A stretch of DNA of 46,065 bases. It comes from a virus (lineage: Duplodnaviria > Caudoviricetes). Below the pieces are notes generated by a model. That model saw nothing but the letters and a program-made list of their open reading frames with translations, was not told the origin of the DNA and did no database searches. Position numbers and translations under genes: made by a program. The stretch is from positions 1 to 46,065 of IMG/VR virus record IMGVR_UViG_3300037470_000435. One strand, written 5' to 3'. Below, piece by piece: positions 1-43,055 of the stretch; position 1 is the stretch's first letter; each line of letters opens with the position of its first letter.

Positions 1-30
1 TTCTTGGGTGTATTCCATTTTCTTGGCCAT

Positions 31-9790: not shown

Positions 9791-10069
9791 ATGACAACAG
9801 TTACCGCATTTCACTTCGAAGTTGCGCTAGCCCACATTAAAAACGGTCGCAGGGTGCAGCGCATCGGTTGGAACGGCAAGGGAATGTTCATTTTCCTCGT
9901 GCCCGGCAGCAAGTTCAAAGTCAACCGCCCGCCGCTGCTCGGCATCTACGAGGAAGGCACCGAGATCAACTACCACGCGCACGTCGACATGCGTACCGCG
10001 GACGGCAAAATCGTGCCGTGGATCTGCTCGCAGACTGACATGCTGGCGACGGACTGGGCGCTGGTGTAA
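9791..10069 (+). CDS. DUF2829 / Tad2-like nucleotide-signal sponge
   Basis: F..AL..IK.G.RV.R.GWNGKGMF...VPW..SQTDMLA.DW signature. Confidence 0.8.
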   Translation: MTTVTAFHFEVALAHIKNGRRVQRIGWNGKGMFIFLVPGSKFKVNRPPLLGIYEEGTEINYHAHVDMRTADGKIVPWICSQTDMLATDWALV

Positions 10070-10934: not shown

Positions 10935-11462
10935 GTGTTCGACAAAGCCATCGAGTTCATCAACCGGTTCTGGGACTGGGCCAAGCCGTTCGAGATCCTC
11001 ATGGCCTACGAGGGTGGGGTGATGACGCGCTTCGGGAAGTTCCAGAAGACGCTGACGCCCGGGTTATACCTCAAGGTGCCGTTCGTGGACTACGCCCTCA
11101 CCACCCACACGACGATCACCACGCTGCAGCTCCGCCCGCAGACCTTGACCACGAAGGACGGCCAGCAGGTTGTGATCGGCGCCATCGTCAAGTACCAGAT
11201 CAAGGACCCCAAGCCGTTCCTGCTGGACATCTGGGACAGTACCGACGTGCTGAACGACGTCACGCTCGGCGCCATCAAGCGCGTCGTGAACGCGCTGTCC
11301 TTCGAGGACCTGGTCCACACCGACGTGGAGGCCCTCGTGCTGGAGGCGGTGCGCAAGGAGTGCAACCAGTACGGCTTCCGCATCCACAAGGTGACGTTCA
11401 CCGACATGGGAAAAATTCGTACGCTGAGACTGATGACTACGGGCTCAGCGCAAACCCCTTAA
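10935..11462 (+). CDS. SPFH/band 7 domain protein
   Basis: YEGGVMTRFGK...PGLYLKVPFVD, LTTKDG..V, YGFRIHKV.F.D. Confidence 0.85.
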   Translation: MFDKAIEFINRFWDWAKPFEILMAYEGGVMTRFGKFQKTLTPGLYLKVPFVDYALTTHTTITTLQLRPQTLTTKDGQQVVIGAIVKYQIKDPKPFLLDIWDSTDVLNDVTLGAIKRVVNALSFEDLVHTDVEALVLEAVRKECNQYGFRIHKVTFTDMGKIRTLRLMTTGSAQTP

Positions 11463-11506: not shown

Positions 11507-11977
11507 ATGACTCAACTCCGGGACCTCACAGAAGCGCAGCATCTTTTTGTTCAGTGCGCCACCGCCGGGCTCACCACGGCCGCCGCGGCACGAGCCGCCG
11601 GCATCAGCGAAGAAGAAGGCCAGCGGATCGTCCAGCTGCCACACATTCAGGCGGCGATGGCGGAGATCCGCAACAAGCTCGCGACCAAGCTCGAAATCAC
11701 TCGTGAAGATGTGGCCCGCGGCTTCCTCGACGCCGTGCGCAGCTCGGCCAACTCGATGGAGCTCGTCGCCGCGTGGCGCGAGATCGGCAAGTTGCTCGGT
11801 CACTACGCGGCGGAGAGAGTCGAGAACACGATCAACGTGGCCGGCGTCGCCAAACTCACACAGATGAAGCAGCTCGACGACAAAGAGCTGCTGGATCTTA
11901 TCGGGGTCGACCCGACCAAGGTGCTGCAAGGGTCGTGTGAACGCGTGGAAGAGGCATATGCGACTGATAAGCCATAA
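11507..11977 (+). CDS. terminase small subunit
   Basis: LTEAQHLF...AAARAAGIS HTH, ITREDV, A..EIGKLLG; upstream of terL. Confidence 0.8.
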   Translation: MTQLRDLTEAQHLFVQCATAGLTTAAAARAAGISEEEGQRIVQLPHIQAAMAEIRNKLATKLEITREDVARGFLDAVRSSANSMELVAAWREIGKLLGHYAAERVENTINVAGVAKLTQMKQLDDKELLDLIGVDPTKVLQGSCERVEEAYATDKP

Positions 11978-12488
11978 AGAAGCCAAAGCCGCTGGCCTGA
12001 AGCGCTACTTCACCGGCAAGAAGTGCGCTCGCGGGCACATCGCCGAGAGGCTCGTGTCCTGTCGTAATTGTCTTCAATGCCATAACGAGAAATGTACCGC
12101 CTGGGCGAAAAGAAACCGGGCAAAACGCAGGAAGTTTGCCCGCGCCGGGTACGCGGCGAACCCAGACAAGCAGCGGCTTCGCTGTCAGGCCTACTACGCC
12201 GCCAACACGGCGCGCGCTCGGGCGCGGGTCAGCGCATGGAAAAGAAAACACCCGGACAAAAACACCGCCAACACGGCGCGCCGCAACGCCCGCAAGCTCA
12301 AAGCCACTCCGATCTGGGCGAATCATGACGCCATCGAGGTCCTCTATTCGCTCGCGCGAAGCGCCAGCAAACAGGTCGACCACATCGTCCCGCTCAAAGG
12401 CAGAAGTGTCTGTGGTTTGCACGTTCATAACAACATGCAGCTCCTACCGCCGGCAGAGAACATGAAGAAAGGCAACCGGCATGTCTGA
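11958..12488 (+). CDS. HNH endonuclease copy 2
   Basis: AKAAGLKRYFTGK.C.RGH; VDHIVPLKG..VCGLHVHNN. Confidence 0.9.
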   Translation: MRLISHKEAKAAGLKRYFTGKKCARGHIAERLVSCRNCLQCHNEKCTAWAKRNRAKRRKFARAGYAANPDKQRLRCQAYYAANTARARARVSAWKRKHPDKNTANTARRNARKLKATPIWANHDAIEVLYSLARSASKQVDHIVPLKGRSVCGLHVHNNMQLLPPAENMKKGNRHV

Positions 12489-14331
12489 AAAGGAAATCGA
12501 TTACACAGCAATTCCATGCCCCGTGTGCCATGAGGTCAAGTCATTTGATCGCTACAACATGAAAGGGCCGCCGTTCACGATCTGCTCGGCCTGTGTGCTG
12601 ATCAAAGACCAGCAGGCCCATGAGGATGCGAAGGCGCGCCGCCGGGCGGAGAAGCTGATCGAGAACCCCCTGCTCGGCATGGACCGCGCCACCAAGGCAA
12701 GGACCCTCGCCAAGGCGAAGAGTAAGAAGGCCAACGAAAAACATAAACGCAAGACCGGGGCCAACCTACGTGAAGCGGCCCAGACCAAAGTGGCCAAGGC
12801 CGTCGCCGCCGTGATGCCGCCGACCACGCCCAAGCACGAACCGACCGAGGCCGAGAAAGAACTGGCCTGGCGCATCCTGGCGCAGCGTCGCTTGCTGCCG
12901 TTCATCATGCGGTTCAAAGAAGACTACCTGGCCGGTTGGGTTCACAAGGATTTGTGTGAGCGGCTCGAGAAATTCAGTGACGACGTGGTTGCGGGCAAAT
13001 CTCCCCGCTTAATGCTGTTCCTACCGCCGCGCACGGGGAAAAGTGAGATCGCGTCGGTGAATTTCCCGGCGTGGCATTTGGGGCGGAACCCAAAACACGA
13101 AGTCATCGCCACGTCGTACGCCGCCGCGCTGGCCTTCAGCTTCTCCAAGCGGGTCCGCGCCATCATCCGCGACCCGTCCTACACCAGCGTGTTCCGCGGG
13201 TGCCGGCTCGATCCGGACAGTCAGTCAACCGAGAACTGGAACACCACGGTCGGCGGAGGGTACCTCGCGGCCGGTGTCGGCGGACCCATCACGGGCCGCG
13301 GCGCGCACGTACTGATCGTGGATGACCCGGTCAAGAACCAGGAGGAGGCCGACTCCGAGACTTCGCGCGAAGTGGTGGCCAACTGGTACAGCTCCACCGC
13401 TTACACCCGACTCGCGCCTGGCGGCGGCGTGCTCATAATTATGACCCGCTGGAACGAAGCCGACCTCGCCGGCTGGCTGCTCGAAATGCAGAAGCAGGGC
13501 GGCGACACCTGGGAAGTCGTGTCGTACCCGGCCATGGCGGAAGAGGACGAGAAGTTCCGTAAGAAGGGCGAGGCGCTGCACCCGGAACGCTACAACATCG
13601 ACATGTTGCAGCAGATCAAGAAGGCCGTCGGCCCGCGCAACTGGTCGGCGCTATACCAGCAGAACCCCGTGGCCGCCTCCGGCGTGTACTTCACGGACAA
13701 AATGATTCGTTTTTATGACGGCGCGCCGCCAGGGAACCTGCGGTACTACTCGGCGTGGGACTTGGCGATCAGCGTCAAAGAAAAGGCGGACTACACGGCC
13801 GGTGTAACCGTCGGCGTCGATGAGAACGACGTGATGTACGTGGTCGACGTGCGCCGCGGTAAGTGGACCGCGGACCAGATTGTGGAGCAGATCCTCGACA
13901 ACTACGTGAAGTGGAAGCCGGACGTGACGGGGATTGAGAAAGGGCATGTGCAGCTAGCTATCGGCCCATTTCTCAAGAAGCGCATCAAGGAGCGCAAACT
14001 ATTTGCGATGTACGTGCTGGAATTCGGCGCAGGCCGCCGCGACAAAGCCTCGCGGGCACGACCGATCCAGGGGCGGATGGAGCAAGGCCTGGTGCGATTC
14101 CCGCGCCACGCGGCATGGATGGACGACCTGCGCAACGAGCTGCTGGGGTTCCAAGGCGGCGCCAAGCACGATGACCAGGCCGACGCGTTGGCTTGGGTTG
14201 GCGTCATGTTGGACGAGATCCTGCCGGCGCAGCTCAGCAAGAGCAAGAAGGCGAAATCCTGGCGCGATAAGTTGACGCGCTTCGGCGCTCGTAACAAGAA
14301 CTTTTACGGCGCGAGTGCGATGTCGGCATGA
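12481..14331 (+). CDS. terminase large subunit
   Basis: PPRTGKS Walker A, LIVDD Walker B, WDLA/DYTA/HDDQAD nuclease; N-terminal CxxC...CxxC extension. Confidence 0.95.
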   Translation: MSEKEIDYTAIPCPVCHEVKSFDRYNMKGPPFTICSACVLIKDQQAHEDAKARRRAEKLIENPLLGMDRATKARTLAKAKSKKANEKHKRKTGANLREAAQTKVAKAVAAVMPPTTPKHEPTEAEKELAWRILAQRRLLPFIMRFKEDYLAGWVHKDLCERLEKFSDDVVAGKSPRLMLFLPPRTGKSEIASVNFPAWHLGRNPKHEVIATSYAAALAFSFSKRVRAIIRDPSYTSVFRGCRLDPDSQSTENWNTTVGGGYLAAGVGGPITGRGAHVLIVDDPVKNQEEADSETSREVVANWYSSTAYTRLAPGGGVLIIMTRWNEADLAGWLLEMQKQGGDTWEVVSYPAMAEEDEKFRKKGEALHPERYNIDMLQQIKKAVGPRNWSALYQQNPVAASGVYFTDKMIRFYDGAPPGNLRYYSAWDLAISVKEKADYTAGVTVGVDENDVMYVVDVRRGKWTADQIVEQILDNYVKWKPDVTGIEKGHVQLAIGPFLKKRIKERKLFAMYVLEFGAGRRDKASRARPIQGRMEQGLVRFPRHAAWMDDLRNELLGFQGGAKHDDQADALAWVGVMLDEILPAQLSKSKKAKSWRDKLTRFGARNKNFYGASAMSA

Positions 14332-14816
14332 AAGTAATCAGCCATAAAGATGCCAAAGCCGCGGGTCTGAAGCGGTACTTCACGGGCAAACCATGCAAGC
14401 GCGGCCACGTCGCAGAGCGGTTCGTGTCGAGCGCAGACTGCACCGAATGCAACCTCGAACGCCTCCGCGCCCGTAAAAAAACCAACCCGGAGAAAGTCCG
14501 CGCCTGGCGCCGCGCCCAATACAAAGCCAACGCGGACAAAGAGCGCGCCCTCATTCGTGCCTGGCAGAAGGCCAACCCGGACAAGCACAACGCCAGGCAA
14601 GCGCGACGTCGTGCCCGCAAGCTCGAAGCCACCCCAATCTGGGCGTGCAAAGAAGCCATCGACGTCATCTATGCGTTGGCGCAGTCGCAGAAGAAACACG
14701 TTGATCACATCATCCCACTAAAGAGCCCGCTCGTCTGTGGGCTCCACGTACACAACAACATGCAGCTCCTACCGCCGGCAGAGAACATGTCGAAAGGAAA
14801 CCGCTATGACGGATAA
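14328..14816 (+). CDS. HNH endonuclease copy 3
   Basis: Same two-domain layout as copy 2. Confidence 0.9.
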   Translation: MKVISHKDAKAAGLKRYFTGKPCKRGHVAERFVSSADCTECNLERLRARKKTNPEKVRAWRRAQYKANADKERALIRAWQKANPDKHNARQARRRARKLEATPIWACKEAIDVIYALAQSQKKHVDHIIPLKSPLVCGLHVHNNMQLLPPAENMSKGNRYDG

Positions 14817-20571: not shown

Positions 20572-21036
20572 ATGCCGCAGGCCGAGTCGGTTTCGCGAAA
20601 AGACGCCAAAGCCGCCGGCCTGAAAAGGTATTTCACCGGCAAGCCGTGTCTTCGCGGGCATATAGCCGAGAGGCTCGTCTCGAGGGCGCGGTGCAACGAA
20701 TGCAAACGCATCCGCGAGCGTGCCCGGCAGAAAGCCAACCCAGAAAAACACAGCTCCCGTATTCGCGCCTGGGCCAAAGCCAACCCCGCGAAGGTCAACG
20801 CCCGAAACGCTCTCCGTCGCGCCCAGAAACTAAAGGCCACCCCAATCTGGGCTTGTAAGCCGGCCATTGACATCATCTACGCCATCGCCCAGTCACGCGG
20901 GATGCACGTCGATCACACCATCCCCTTAAAGAACCCGCTCGTCTGCGGCTTGCACGTTCATTACAACCTGCGGCCTCTGCCGCCGGAAGTGAATCTTAAG
21001 AAGTCGAACTCGTTCAAGGCGGGTGCATCGTGCTAG
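20572..21036 (+). CDS. HNH endonuclease copy 4
   Basis: Same family motifs. Confidence 0.9.
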   Translation: MPQAESVSRKDAKAAGLKRYFTGKPCLRGHIAERLVSRARCNECKRIRERARQKANPEKHSSRIRAWAKANPAKVNARNALRRAQKLKATPIWACKPAIDIIYAIAQSRGMHVDHTIPLKNPLVCGLHVHYNLRPLPPEVNLKKSNSFKAGASC

Positions 21037-39427: not shown

Positions 39428-39665
39428 CCTCCTGCTGGCCGGTTGCGGCGGTACGCAGCTCGTCAAGGTTGAGGTTCCGACCAAGATCCACCCACCGGCC
39501 GACCTGGTGGAGCCGCTGAGCAAAGAACACCGCCCGACGTTCGTGTATCCGAATGATTCTGGCGCAAGCAGCTGCCTGACGCCAGAGGGCGAGCGGCAGC
39601 TGCGTGAACTGTTCTTGGAACTGCTAGGGAAGTACGAGGCACTGAGGGCATGGGCTATCGACTGA
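39396..39665 (+). CDS. o-spanin (Rz1-like lipoprotein)
   Basis: LLLAG-C lipobox, Pro-rich. Confidence 0.7.
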   Translation: MHLTNFLLSCSLLLAGCGGTQLVKVEVPTKIHPPADLVEPLSKEHRPTFVYPNDSGASSCLTPEGERQLRELFLELLGKYEALRAWAID

Positions 39666-39946
39666 GGGTGTTGATGCTGGCGTTGACCCTGGGCTTAGTT
39701 TCTCAGGACTCAGTCGCTGCGGCCGAACTTACCGTCGTCCAGCATTGCGGTGTTCCGGTGCTCTACATTGGGACGCTCGATGGGACCACGATCTACGTGA
39801 CTCAGTACGAGGTTAAGACGTACCCAGTCTTTGCGGAGTTCTTGTCGAAGATCATCCGGGAGCTGACGCTCATCAACATCGAGCCGCAGATCAACGGGAT
39901 TAAGATCGAGCAAATCAGCGGTATCCACTGCCCCATCCGCGTGTGA
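39650..39946 (+). CDS. hypothetical exported protein (start uncertain)
   Basis: Signal-peptide-like N-terminus, two Cys. Confidence 0.5.
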   Translation: MGYRLRVLMLALTLGLVSQDSVAAAELTVVQHCGVPVLYIGTLDGTTIYVTQYEVKTYPVFAEFLSKIIRELTLINIEPQINGIKIEQISGIHCPIRV

Positions 39947-39954
39947 AAAAATAG

Positions 39955-39985
39955 ATTGCAGCCCGCCCACGACCTATGAGACTAT
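39955..39985 (+). promoter_or_regulatory. box promoter of tRNA array
   Basis: ATTGCAGCCCGCC-12(TGa)-GACTAT, 8 nt before tRNA-Gly. Confidence 0.55.
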
Positions 39986-39993
39986 CCGTGCTT

Positions 39994-40068
39994 GCATCCT
40001 AAGTGTTGTTGGCGGCACGACGGTCTTCCAAACCGTAGGCGTCGGATCGTAACCGACAGGACGCTCCA
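39994..40068 (+). tRNA. tRNA-Gly(TCC), atypical T-loop
   Basis: ACGGT-CT-TCC-AA-ACCGT; GTCGG-ATCGTAA-CCGAC; U73, CCA. Confidence 0.8.
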
Positions 40069-40074
40069 GATTAT

Positions 40075-40152
40075 ATGAAACGAACCTTTACACAGACGCA
40101 ACCCAATCATCCGGCGGCCAGAGGCCCCTCGGAGGTTTATCATGCGTCCTGA
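40075..40152 (+). CDS. putative attenuator leader peptide MKRTFTQTQPNHPAARGPSEVYHAS
   Basis: 25 codons; overlaps antiterminator strand; composition matches downstream tRNAs. Confidence 0.7.
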   Translation: MKRTFTQTQPNHPAARGPSEVYHAS

Positions 40153-40211
40153 GTAATCGTACTCACACCAGATGAACACCGAGGGGCCTCCAAAAGAGGC
40201 CCCTTTGTTTT
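40121..40211 (+). promoter_or_regulatory. mutually exclusive antiterminator/terminator (attenuator)
   Basis: 40121-40132 pairs 12/12 with 40179-40190; 40182-40190 alternatively pairs with 40196-40204 followed by TTGTTTT. Confidence 0.85.
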
Positions 40212-40286
40212 GGGCTTGTAGTGATAATGGGAGCACATCTGCCTTGCAAGCAGAAGGTCAGGGTTCGATTCCCTGCTGGTCCACCA
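40212..40286 (+). tRNA. tRNA-Ala(TGC)
   Basis: TCTGC-CT-TGC-AA-GCAGA, G3-U70, A73, CCA. Confidence 0.9.
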
Positions 40287-40342
40287 GTTTTGAACGTACA
40301 TATGCTTACTGCCGTGTATGTTTTGTAAGCATATAGCTTTAC

Positions 40343-40419
40343 GCCCGATTAGCTCAGTAGGTAGAGCAGCTGCCTTGTAAGCAGAAGGTCGCAGGTTCGA
40401 TTCCGTGCATTGGGCACCA
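40343..40419 (+). tRNA. tRNA-Thr(TGT)
   Basis: CTGC-CT-TGT-AA-GCAG; bulged T stem; CCA. Confidence 0.9.
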
Positions 40420-40424
40420 GTTAT

Positions 40425-40499
40425 CAGCGTGTAAGTCAACAGCAGACGGCCGAGCTTGGAACTCGGAGGCAGCTGGGGCAGCACCAGCCACGCTGACCA
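40425..40499 (+). tRNA. tRNA-Pro(TGG), non-canonical D/T loops
   Basis: CAGCGTG/CACGCTG, CCGAG-CT-TGG-AA-CTCGG, T-loop GGCAGCA, CCA. Confidence 0.8.
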
Positions 40500-40502
40500 T
40501 TT

Positions 40503-40578
40503 TGGCGTGTAGCTCAGCAGGCAGAGCAGCGGATTGTTAATCCGCCGGTCGCTGGTTCGATCCCAGCTGCGCCAGCCA
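40503..40578 (+). tRNA. tRNA-Asn(GTT)
   Basis: GCGGA-TT-GTT-AA-TCCGC, G73, CCA. Confidence 0.92.
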
Positions 40579-40583
40579 GTTAC

Positions 40584-40660
40584 GGCGATATGTAGCTCAA
40601 TTGGCAGAGCCCTCGACTGTGAATCGAGAAGGTGCGGGTTCAAGGCCCGTCGATCACCCA
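40584..40660 (+). tRNA. tRNA-His(GTG), irregular acceptor stem
   Basis: CTCGA-CT-GTG-AA-TCGAG; GCGGG-TTCAAGG-CCCGT. Confidence 0.8.
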
Positions 40661-40665
40661 ATTAT

Positions 40666-40739
40666 TGACTTGTCGTCTAATGGCAGGACAGGAGGTTTTG
40701 GCCCTCCCAATGCAGGTTCGAGTCCTGCCGGGTCAACCA
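40666..40739 (+). tRNA. tRNA-Gln(TTG)
   Basis: TGACTTG/CGGGTCA, GGAGG-TT-TTG-GC-CCTCC, CCA. Confidence 0.9.
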
Positions 40740-40740
40740 G

Positions 40741-40977
40741 TTACTTCTTGAACTTGTACCAGCCCTCGCCCTTCATGCAGGTCTCGAAACGCCGTTTATT
40801 CGTGCGCTGGCCGGGAGGAATGTACCCGCCACCGGCGTAGAGCTCCTGGCTGATCGATTCGCAGCGTGAGACGTCCGCGTAGTACTGTTGTTGCGATTTG
40901 CCAGAGCCGGAAGCCCACTGGTAGTTGTTGGCACAACCGGCCAGTAGCACGACGGCGACGAACTGAGCGAACTTCAT
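40741..40977 (-). CDS. small lipoprotein
   Basis: LLAG-C lipobox, two further Cys; GGAGG RBS. Confidence 0.75.
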   Translation of the reverse strand: MKFAQFVAVVLLAGCANNYQWASGSGKSQQQYYADVSRCESISQELYAGGGYIPPGQRTNKRRFETCMKGEGWYKFKK

Positions 40978-41482: not shown

Positions 41483-41932
41483 TTACGCTGCGAGTTTGTT
41501 GCCTTTGGAGAGATTTTCGACTGCGGGGATGTTGCGGAGGTTGTACTCAACATGAAGGCCGCAGACGTTGTGGCCTTTGAGAGGAACGATATGGTCGGTG
41601 TGTTCGCCCGGTTTACGGGCGGCGTAGATCGCCGCGATGGCATTTAGATCGGCCCAGGCTGGGGTGGCGCGGAGCGTGTGGGCGCGGCGGAGGGCACGAC
41701 GGGAGACGAATACTGCGGGGTTGGCGTCGTATCTTAGGCGCTGTGTGTATGCGCGGCGGGCTCGGTTTGCTTTGTGCCAACTCGTAGCCCGCTCCGGGTA
41801 CTTCTGGCGGTGCTTCTTCATGTTGGCTGAGTGGCACGACCGGCACCACCAAAACAATCCGTCTTTCGCTTGCCTGTTCGGTGAGAACTCGGCGTGGTCT
41901 TTGTGCGCTTCGCACTTGGGGCACCATTTCAC
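41483..41932 (-). CDS. HNH endonuclease copy 5 (different Zn-finger N-terminus)
   Basis: KWCPKC..F......DGL..WCRSC; ATPAWA, HTDHIVPLKG.NVCGLHV. Confidence 0.9.
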   Translation of the reverse strand: MKWCPKCEAHKDHAEFSPNRQAKDGLFWWCRSCHSANMKKHRQKYPERATSWHKANRARRAYTQRLRYDANPAVFVSRRALRRAHTLRATPAWADLNAIAAIYAARKPGEHTDHIVPLKGHNVCGLHVEYNLRNIPAVENLSKGNKLAA

Positions 41933-42068: not shown

Positions 42069-43055
42069 TTACAGGTTGATCTTAGTGCCGGCTAGTTGTA
42101 AATGTTCCGGGGTCAAGTGTGAGTATTTTTCGGTCGTGGTGACACTGGCATGCCCGGCGAGCACCTGGACGGCTCGTAGGGGCACTCCGGCCATGACCAG
42201 CTGGGAGATGTAAGTGTGACGCAGGCTGTGGAGGGTCCCGCCCAGTTTGGCGCGGTGGGCGCAGCGTTCAAAGGCCCTGGTGAGGGAGCGCGGGTGCTCG
42301 CGCGGCAGCACGTACTGGCCCTCGGTCTTGATGCGCTTGACGGCGCGGCGGGCATTGTCCGTGAGCGGAATTTCACGCCACTTGCCGCTCTTGGTACGTT
42401 CCTCGGCGGTGGAGAGCACGCGGATCGAGCTCTCGCCGATGTCGGCCTTCTTGAGCTGCAGGGCCTCGCTGCGTCGTAGTCCGGTGTTGACCATCAGTTG
42501 CCAGATGGCGGCGTGGTAGGGCGACGCGGCGTACAGGCGCTTCAGTTGGGGCTTGGTATAAAAATGGGGCGGCCTGGCGTCCAGCTCTTGTGGCATAGAA
42601 ACCCCCGCAATCCGATTCCTCGGTAAAAGCTCCCATTCTACGGCCTTGTTCAGCAGGGCCTTCAGTATGCGCAGTTCCTTCGTTACGGTGCCACTAGCAC
42701 TAAGTCCTGAGCGACTGTGTTTGTAGTCCTCGGCCATCTTGGGGGTGATTGCATCGAGCGGAAACACGCCGAACACCGGGAGCAGGTGCTGCCGGACGAT
42801 CTGGGCGACGCGCCAGTGACTGGAAGGGTATTCTTTTTCGTGCCACGCCAGATATTCTTCGGCGTAGTTACTCATGACTAAGGACGAGGGGAGATAGACT
42901 TGGCCTGTGCTGAGCTCGAGTTCCTTGGCCTGCAGGAGGATTTTAACCTGGCGTTCTGGTACTGTTCGGACATTTCCGACTGGAGTTTTGTGGCGGCCGG
43001 TGACGTCGGACCATTGTATGTACCAGGTGCCACCACGTTTGTAGTATGTTGCCAC
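42069..43055 (-). CDS. int: tyrosine integrase
   Basis: TGLRRSE, TKSGK, HSLRH, LAGH, TEKY catalytic set. Confidence 0.95.
   Translation of the reverse strand: MATYYKRGGTWYIQWSDVTGRHKTPVGNVRTVPERQVKILLQAKELELSTGQVYLPSSLVMSNYAEEYLAWHEKEYPSSHWRVAQIVRQHLLPVFGVFPLDAITPKMAEDYKHSRSGLSASGTVTKELRILKALLNKAVEWELLPRNRIAGVSMPQELDARPPHFYTKPQLKRLYAASPYHAAIWQLMVNTGLRRSEALQLKKADIGESSIRVLSTAEERTKSGKWREIPLTDNARRAVKRIKTEGQYVLPREHPRSLTRAFERCAHRAKLGGTLHSLRHTYISQLVMAGVPLRAVQVLAGHASVTTTEKYSHLTPEHLQLAGTKINL

Follow-up and report, generated by a model that had tools for sequence, protein, structure and literature searches.

A putative leader-peptide attenuator ahead of a tRNA array in an uncultured phage

Attenuators, inducible tRNA arrays and the present locus

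Why phages carry tRNA genes is a long-open question, and codon supply, replacement of degraded tRNAs and evasion of anticodon nucleases are the candidate answers. One known way of linking tRNAs to transcription is the T-box riboswitch, in which the charging of a tRNA sets the choice between a terminator and an antiterminator; the tRNA is bound directly, and translation is not needed. The locus described here lies in a stretch of phage DNA 46,065 nucleotides long (hereafter the window), which is the whole of the linear IMG/VR record IMGVR_UViG_3300037470_000435. It has in common with a T-box the choice between terminator and antiterminator, but a T-box binds tRNA, whereas the locus in the window would need translation. 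No T-box match was found in Rfam at the gathering score over the window, nor at E-values up to 10 over positions 39900-40800.

The second point of comparison is ribosome-mediated attenuation, whose mechanism is described for pheL in PMC3082878. The E. coli leaders trpL, hisL and pheL and the multivalent leaders thrL and ilvL resemble the locus in the window in having a short ORF, control codons that correspond to the output, and an antiterminator and an intrinsic terminator that exclude each other. A preliminary description of this DNA had also remarked that thrL begins Met-Lys-Arg, as the leader in the window does, and this was seen in the thrL sequence that we used as a control. In contrast, the output in the window would be tRNA genes rather than enzymes of amino-acid biosynthesis. 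The window leader represents six amino acids by 11 different codons used once each, whereas thrL has 12 control codons of 4 kinds and hisL and pheL have 7 of 2 kinds, and the tandem runs of control codons found in thrL, hisL and pheL are absent from it. With no ribosome the window locus is predicted to read through, whereas trpL, hisL and pheL have a protector hairpin. Finally, unlike the E. coli attenuators, the window leader lacks a Shine-Dalgarno site and is placed between tRNA genes in a phage.

Inducible tRNA genes and broadly responsive leaders are each known separately. As described in the accessible parts of PMC8421152 and PMC10272220, the trn operon of Anabaena PCC 7120 is an inducible tRNA array (the L-array) under the repressor TrcR and is induced when translation is impaired. 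It is like our reading of the window locus in that an extra tRNA array is switched on under impaired translation; unlike it, the trn operon relies on a protein repressor, is plasmid-borne and comprises 26 genes, and those parts describe no codon-matched leader. The toiL uORF of E. coli topAI-yjhQ is one short ORF that senses stalls at several positions, and it differs from the window locus in acting by ribosome-binding-site occlusion plus Rho, in controlling a toxin-antitoxin pair and in taking antibiotics as its input (10.1101/682021).

AriB, of the PARIS system, cleaves tRNAs and thereby stalls ribosomes at the cognate codons; Thr(UGU), Asn(GUU), His(GUG) and Pro(UGG) are among its probable cleavage products (PMC12409363), and these are four of the six anticodons of the array in the window. 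Because Lys(UUU), which AriB chiefly targets, is absent from this array, we treat the overlap only as a lead. Feedback control of phage tRNA transcription is not described for the T5 counter-defence tRNAs in the accessible part of PMC12409363. A literature search, with subscription papers mostly outside it, found no account of leader-peptide control of phage tRNA genes, in agreement with the preliminary description, whose author knew of no phage tRNA-array attenuator of this kind.

The leader, its hairpins and the tRNA genes

The elements of the locus, all on the + strand, are as follows:

39956..39985, + strand: possible weak promoter ahead of tRNA-Gly, seen by eye (A-tract, TTGCAG, poor -10)
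39994..40068, + strand: tRNA-Gly(UCC), upstream of the switch (ARAGORN; Rfam 43.3 bits)
40075..40152, + strand: 25-codon leader ORF without a Shine-Dalgarno site, starting 6 nt past the CCA of tRNA-Gly
40084..40119, + strand: putative sensor block, codons 4-15 of the leader
40121..40132, + strand: antiterminator 5' strand, beginning in codon 16
40135..40177, + strand: inner hairpin, containing the leader stop codon and compatible with both states (minimum-free-energy and forced folds)
40179..40190, + strand: shared strand, both antiterminator 3' strand and terminator 5' arm
40182..40211, + strand: intrinsic-terminator-like hairpin and U tract, -16.4 kcal/mol, abutting tRNA-Ala
40212..40286, + strand: tRNA-Ala(UGC), G3-U70 present (ARAGORN and Rfam)
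40343..40419, + strand: tRNA-Thr(UGU) (ARAGORN and Rfam)
40425..40499, + strand: tRNA-Pro(UGG)-like gene, cloverleaf fold with irregular D- and T-loops
40503..40578, + strand: tRNA-Asn(GUU) (ARAGORN and Rfam)
40584..40660, + strand: tRNA-His(GUG), irregular acceptor stem (Rfam 44.8 bits; ARAGORN at relaxed threshold only)
40666..40739, + strand: tRNA-Gln(UUG), last gene of the array (ARAGORN and Rfam)

Translated anew, the ORF at 40075-40152 gives the 25-aa peptide of the preliminary description, and 11 of the 12 codons from 4 to 15 specify Thr, Gln, Pro, Asn, His or Ala, with all six present. The varied synonyms remarked on earlier were likewise found, all 11 matched codons being different, which is a mild effect (4,391 of 100,000 draws under the codon usage of the phage). 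The amino acids of the tRNAs outside the terminator (Gly, Glu and Asp) are absent from leader codons 2-15, and codons 16-25 show no enrichment for the amino acids of the array (3/10).

Codons for Thr, Gln, Pro, Asn and His are A/C-rich and would be favoured in any A/C tract, and two kinds of null were therefore used: one in which the leader is fixed and six amino acids are drawn, and one in which base composition is kept. With the leader fixed, 11 of codons 4-15 were covered by 3 of 38,760 six-amino-acid sets, 11 of codons 2-15 by 10 sets and 9 of codons 2-13 by 140 sets; the physically safest block, codons 2-12, gives a weaker match (8 covered, in 261 of 38,760 sets). When draws were weighted by tRNA frequency in the phage loci that we fetched, the counts for blocks 4-15, 2-15 and 2-13 were 39, 188 and 1,524 per 400,000. 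Real runs of six amino acids from other phage arrays (n = 385) never reached 11/14, and one reached 10. Among 147,090 stop-free base shuffles, 56 reached 11/12, of which 17 also contained all six amino acids, and of the 891 ATG-started 14-codon stretches in the window only the leader itself has 11 matches and all six. The codon match between leader and array, on which the preliminary description was built, exceeds chance under both kinds of null.

The earlier caveat that the leader has no clear Shine-Dalgarno site was justified: none was found before 40075, where the start lies 6 nt from the tRNA cloverleaf. By the same crude test, such a site is also absent from 15 of the 38 other predicted genes, some of whose starts are doubtful. 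The start region (40069-40090) has a mean unpaired probability of 0.80 with tRNA-Gly attached and 0.96 without it.

Perfect pairing of 40121-40132 with 40179-40190 was confirmed (12/12 Watson-Crick pairs), and the extensions proposed for it turn out to be the inner helices of the minimum-free-energy fold, 40135-41/40171-77 and 40153-58/40163-67 (z about -6, 0/200 shuffles). The terminator stem pairs 40182-40190 with 40196-40204 (9/9 pairs), with TTTGTTTT, and its end at 40211 is the base before tRNA-Ala; the leader stop codon lies 30 nt upstream of the terminator core. As claimed, the antiterminator excludes the terminator: the 5' arm is common to both hairpins, and pairing and folds alike make the two mutually exclusive. 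When the upstream spacer was shuffled with its dinucleotides kept, none of 20,000 versions contained a perfect 12-bp complement to the 5' region of the terminator. Two further complementarities, one of 8 bp joining the end of the leader to the acceptor strand of tRNA-Gly and one of 11 nt linking the leader start with tRNA T-loops, were rejected as within chance.

The six tRNA genes named downstream of the switch are not equally secure. Ala, Thr, Asn and Gln are supported by ARAGORN and Rfam, and His by its Rfam score; the irregular Pro gene was called by neither Rfam nor ARAGORN, relaxed threshold included, and may not be a working tRNA. Its anticodon arm is common to tRNA-Pro-type genes in two other loci (L116 and L160), its T-loop is similar to a purine-rich variant in a tmRNA-like end of a third (L464), and a search against cultured phages gave 2 short matches. 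Purine-rich T-loop variants are functional in some tmRNAs. The acceptor stem of tRNA-Gly has an A3-C70 mismatch, and this gene, together with the other tRNAs of the phage (two Glu and Asp), lies outside the terminator. The 56-nt spacer between tRNA-Ala and tRNA-Thr (40287-40342) carries a perfect inverted repeat of 10 bp and duplicates the 9-mer of the Thr anticodon loop; it may be a signal for processing or what is left of a tRNA.

Leaders before other tRNA arrays

No close homologue of the module was found in searches based on viral contigs, integrase, capsid and spacer. The exact antiterminator pattern had 0 matches in viral contigs, the integrase relatives contributed 1 weak locus only, and the 42 capsid-related records included 3 with any tRNA match and none with this module; the tRNA-Gly pattern matched 3 loci. 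A search with the spacer gave 6 short chance matches in cultured phages and two of 14 nt among all fetched loci. Under a strict G+C stem rule, which may miss A+T-rich terminators, a terminator was present in 1 of 262 tRNA-with-gap sites, namely the window itself (130 loci from capsid relatives and from the tRNA-Ala and tRNA-Gly patterns, plus the window). Conservation or compensatory change therefore cannot be shown for this copy, and the prediction was instead tested at the level of the class, in unrelated loci.

The first viral survey searched by pattern, in two scans, for hairpins placed immediately ahead of a tRNA and drew on at least 240 loci (at least 120 from each scan). Together with the window, the matches listed gave 358 tRNA-with-gap sites and 119 terminators, among which the antiterminator duplex of the window is the strongest (-29, vs. 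-21 for the next). A layout filter blind to amino acids let through the window and 36 other loci; of these 36, 4 that had only Met or uncertain calls were dropped, leaving 32. The leader block scored was the 14 codons before the antiterminator, and the null was obtained by permuting arrays. In these 32 viral loci, among the matches listed and with the window excluded, 48 of 65 array amino acids were matched in the locus's own leader, vs. 30.7 when permuted (1/100,000). With one locus per family, families having been grouped by eye, the counts among the matches listed were 32-34 of 47-49 vs. about 23 (36, 58 and 227 per 50,000), and arrays with three or more amino acids gave 25/34 vs. 16.9 (728/100,000). 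We would like to note that this test was not blind, because the filter was set after leaders had been seen.

Individual analogues can be closely matched. The leader of L490 contains 7/7 of its own array amino acids (Tyr, Trp, Cys, Ser, Thr, Glu and Gln) and that of L488 contains 6/6; both repeat codons, and we therefore regard the one-codon-each feature of the window as local and mild. A family of seven loci (L460, L461, L480, L481, L514, L555 and L566) has leaders with Trp, Cys and Pro codons before Trp/Cys(/Pro/Gln) tRNA genes; in it the rare residues stand just before the hairpin, and promoter-like and Shine-Dalgarno-like sites are clear.

The covariation did not extend to a held-out metagenome scan, in which 119 loci, many of them apparently bacterial chromosomes, gave 48 terminators and 12 usable loci: 17 of 35 array amino acids were matched vs. 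16.8, and 20/35 vs. 19.3 when the whole pre-hairpin block was scored. Thus, the prediction of the preliminary description that leader codons vary with array content stood in the 32 viral loci and failed in the held-out set. One locus of the latter, L609, nevertheless has all 9 of the non-Met amino acids called in its array within its first 15 codons. A third viral scan (51 loci) yielded 3 distinct leaders, a set too small to weigh, with 11/13 vs. 7.7 (9,935/30,000). Among them, L730 (1370-1545)/L733 has, midway in a large phage tRNA array, a 28-codon leader with all 20 amino acids, an antiterminator and a terminator. It shares with the window leader the first three residues, a similar stem and the lack of a Shine-Dalgarno site; as there is no continuous alignment between the two leaders, we do not claim homology, and the L730 leader had no match in cultured phages. 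Five other loci (L408, L605, L633, L671 and L729) share a conserved ORF, about 55 codons long, that has promoter-like and Shine-Dalgarno-like sites of its own and is flanked on one side by tRNA-Gln(UUG) and on the other by a terminator preceding the genes for tRNA-Gln(CUG), Ile and Glu. The end of this ORF can pair with the terminator arm, and it is possibly a second type of leader.

Ribosome position, proposed mechanism and phage setting

A ribosome extends about 8-12 nt past the start of its A site, and footprints of 8, 10 and 12 nt were modelled on a transcript cut at the terminator loop, the output being the cost of freeing the terminator 5' arm. With the A site on codons 2-13 the arm is predicted to be sequestered (15-24 kcal/mol to free it); the cost is 19/13/7 kcal/mol at Ala14 and 10/4/2 kcal/mol at Ala15 for footprints of 8/10/12 nt, and from codon 16 onward the arm is free (1-4 kcal/mol), i.e., the switch flips at codons 14-16. 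The same model places all four E. coli controls (thrL, hisL, pheL and trpL) high on their control codons with a fall before the stop, bearing out the supposed likeness of geometry. A profile of this shape was also obtained for 8/8 hand-picked analogues, and in L490, L488 and L555 the last matched codon falls on the same falling edge as that of the window.

Full-length equilibrium folding also flips the window from antiterminator to terminator, at codons 13-15. This model fails on 3/4 E. coli controls, thrL, hisL and trpL, for which it calls "terminator" wherever the ribosome is placed; it finds no terminator for ilvL, and of the eight analogues it calls "terminator" at every codon in 7 and is high throughout in the eighth. 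Its probabilities are therefore weak evidence, and we rely on the truncated-transcript model.

Given the modelled costs and the falling edge at Ala14-15, the codons for Thr, Gln, Pro, Asn and His stand in good positions for sensing in the model and Ala is marginal: Ala15 is probably not sensed, and sensing of Ala14 would require a ribosome whose cover ends about 8-10 nt beyond the start of the A site. The proposal that a completing ribosome covers the antiterminator strand and a stalled one does not is thus upheld by the model for codons 2-13, partly for 14 and weakly for 15. The warning that a stall at the last Ala codons might mask the antiterminator was apt, the last of them lying at or past the switch point, and the idea that all six amino acids are sensed stands for five, with Ala doubtful.

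The codon match, the exclusive hairpins, their spacing and geometry, and the covariation across the viral class together argue that the module is probably a codon-specific, ribosome-coupled transcription attenuator for the phage tRNA array, read when decoding fails. Host RNA polymerase would make tRNA-Gly and the leader as one transcript, and a ribosome would initiate without a Shine-Dalgarno site on the A/U-rich, predicted-open start region. With charged tRNAs plentiful, it would pass codon 15 and cover 40121-40132, the terminator would form and only tRNA-Gly would be made. Were any of the charged tRNAs for Thr, Gln, Pro, Asn or His (and, to some extent, Ala) missing, the antiterminator would form first and the six genes would be transcribed, their products relieving the stall and closing a feedback loop. 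Transcription may enter from the possible promoter at 39956-39985 or else from the late/lysis genes; a consensus scan found 0 promoter-like sites.

A protector (1:2) hairpin is absent from the window (17-18 kcal/mol at codons 2-3, vs. 0-2 in trpL, hisL and pheL and 8 in thrL), and an untranslated leader would therefore read through. If no ribosome loads, the antiterminator would form and the six tRNA genes would be transcribed, so a general loss of translation would likewise open the switch. This raises the possibility of an attenuator that is real but reads general translation failure (lack of initiation, stalling from antibiotics or host shut-off, or amino-acid starvation), with the codon match secondary and the loss of particular tRNAs not the input it works on. 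The antiterminator in place both at codons 2-3 and without a ribosome is what such a device would show, the leaders of L730/L733 use all 20 amino acids, and toiL senses many stalling agents (10.1101/682021). The block, however, matches this array and not amino acids generally, and leader content follows array content among the viral loci; we regard general sensing as rather unlikely.

Another explanation is that the ORF is untranslated, the antiterminator is the default, the array is constitutive and the module is the relic of an attenuator. The missing Shine-Dalgarno site fits this, the irregularities of tRNA-Pro, -His and -Gly could be signs of decay, and equilibrium folding, weak evidence as it is, gives the antiterminator a probability of about 1.0 before the terminator 3' arm is made. 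In contrast, the reading frame, the codon match and both stems are intact (12/12 and 9/9 pairs), the start region is predicted to be open, and several matched analogues (L469, L490, L609 and L730) likewise lack a Shine-Dalgarno-like site. A relic therefore appears quite improbable.

Returning to the codon-specific attenuator, its natural trigger is most likely the loss of host tRNA, e.g., through cleavage by an anti-phage nuclease, rather than mild amino-acid shortage. Given the usual enterobacterial set of isoacceptors, the 11 leader codons come to roughly one for each host tRNA species, an arrangement that would suit outright tRNA loss better than mild starvation. A broader proposal, which we advance tentatively and hold at somewhat short of an even chance, is that phages including this one carry a modular tRNA-surveillance switch with one codon per host isoacceptor of a chosen set, going "on" by default if translation fails and rewritten along with the array. 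The leader would then be a record of the host tRNAs that anticodon nucleases destroy, and the arrays would be inducible counter-defence and not a constitutive codon supplement. A switch by which tRNA genes were transcribed only on poor decoding of the codons that they serve would show phage tRNAs to be a repair kit made on demand, and would make the question of why phages carry them testable with a 150-nt reporter. It would also bring the tRNA pool, and not just enzymes, under classical attenuation and provide a compact genetic sensor for damage to tRNAs.

The record (59% G+C, estimated 73% complete) has PHROGs matches to DNA polymerase, large terminase, portal, capsid, internal virion proteins, endolysin, integrase and excisionase, from which we read the uncultured phage as a temperate, podovirus-like one. 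Three pieces from another study's run (X2) match 39913-40410 with 0 differences, except for base 40259; the switch region is therefore no assembly artefact. Runs X3-X5 gave short pieces only, none over the leader.

The tRNA array follows spanin-like late genes on the same strand, and terminator prediction places no + strand terminator at 39600-40180, i.e., between the last late ORF and 40180. The hairpin could accordingly just end transcription of the late/lysis operon. A phage antitermination protein would then carry polymerase past it, as happens in lambdoid late units headed by tRNA genes, and the complement and the ORF would be due to chance or local duplication. In line with this, 78 of the 119 terminator-before-tRNA sites listed lack any perfect helix of at least 5 bp, some of them looking lambdoid, and the gene for an antitermination protein could be missing from a record estimated at 73% complete. 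No such protein was found, however, when 60 ORFs were compared with PHROGs and 28 with Pfam, and chance does not give both the 12-bp complement and the codon match directly before it. We consider a plain late terminator most improbable.

Two further tRNA genes bear on the phage itself:

41992-42067: tRNA-Glu, complete and host-type, tail-to-tail with the integrase (42069-43055)
2892-2968: second tRNA-Glu, divergent

The first of these, beside the integrase, is likely the attachment site. A pattern made from it matched at least 120 genome stretches, and nearly all of the 80 listed are Gammaproteobacteria, a hint only that the host may belong there. Leader-peptide attenuators are established in Gammaproteobacteria. 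An ARAGORN call of tRNA-Val at 11232-11323 was treated as false, lying antisense inside an SPFH gene without an Rfam match.

Additionally, a Tad2-like (Thoeris anti-defence) domain is present at 9791-10069 (Pfam PF11195, 79 bits vs. a cut-off of 25), which suggests that the phage likely has other counter-defence genes besides the tRNA module. Four related endonuclease VII-like ORFs (11937-12488, 14328-14816, 20572-21036 and 41483-41932) are scattered among the structural genes and are probably mobile homing endonucleases. Lastly, a structured element of 145 nt on the - strand (2742-2885), between tRNA-Glu and tRNA-Asp, had no Rfam match at E-values up to 5; it has a tRNA-like acceptor stem and T-loop with long inner arms (fold z -3.3, 0/200 shuffles) and is possibly an undescribed tRNA-like RNA.
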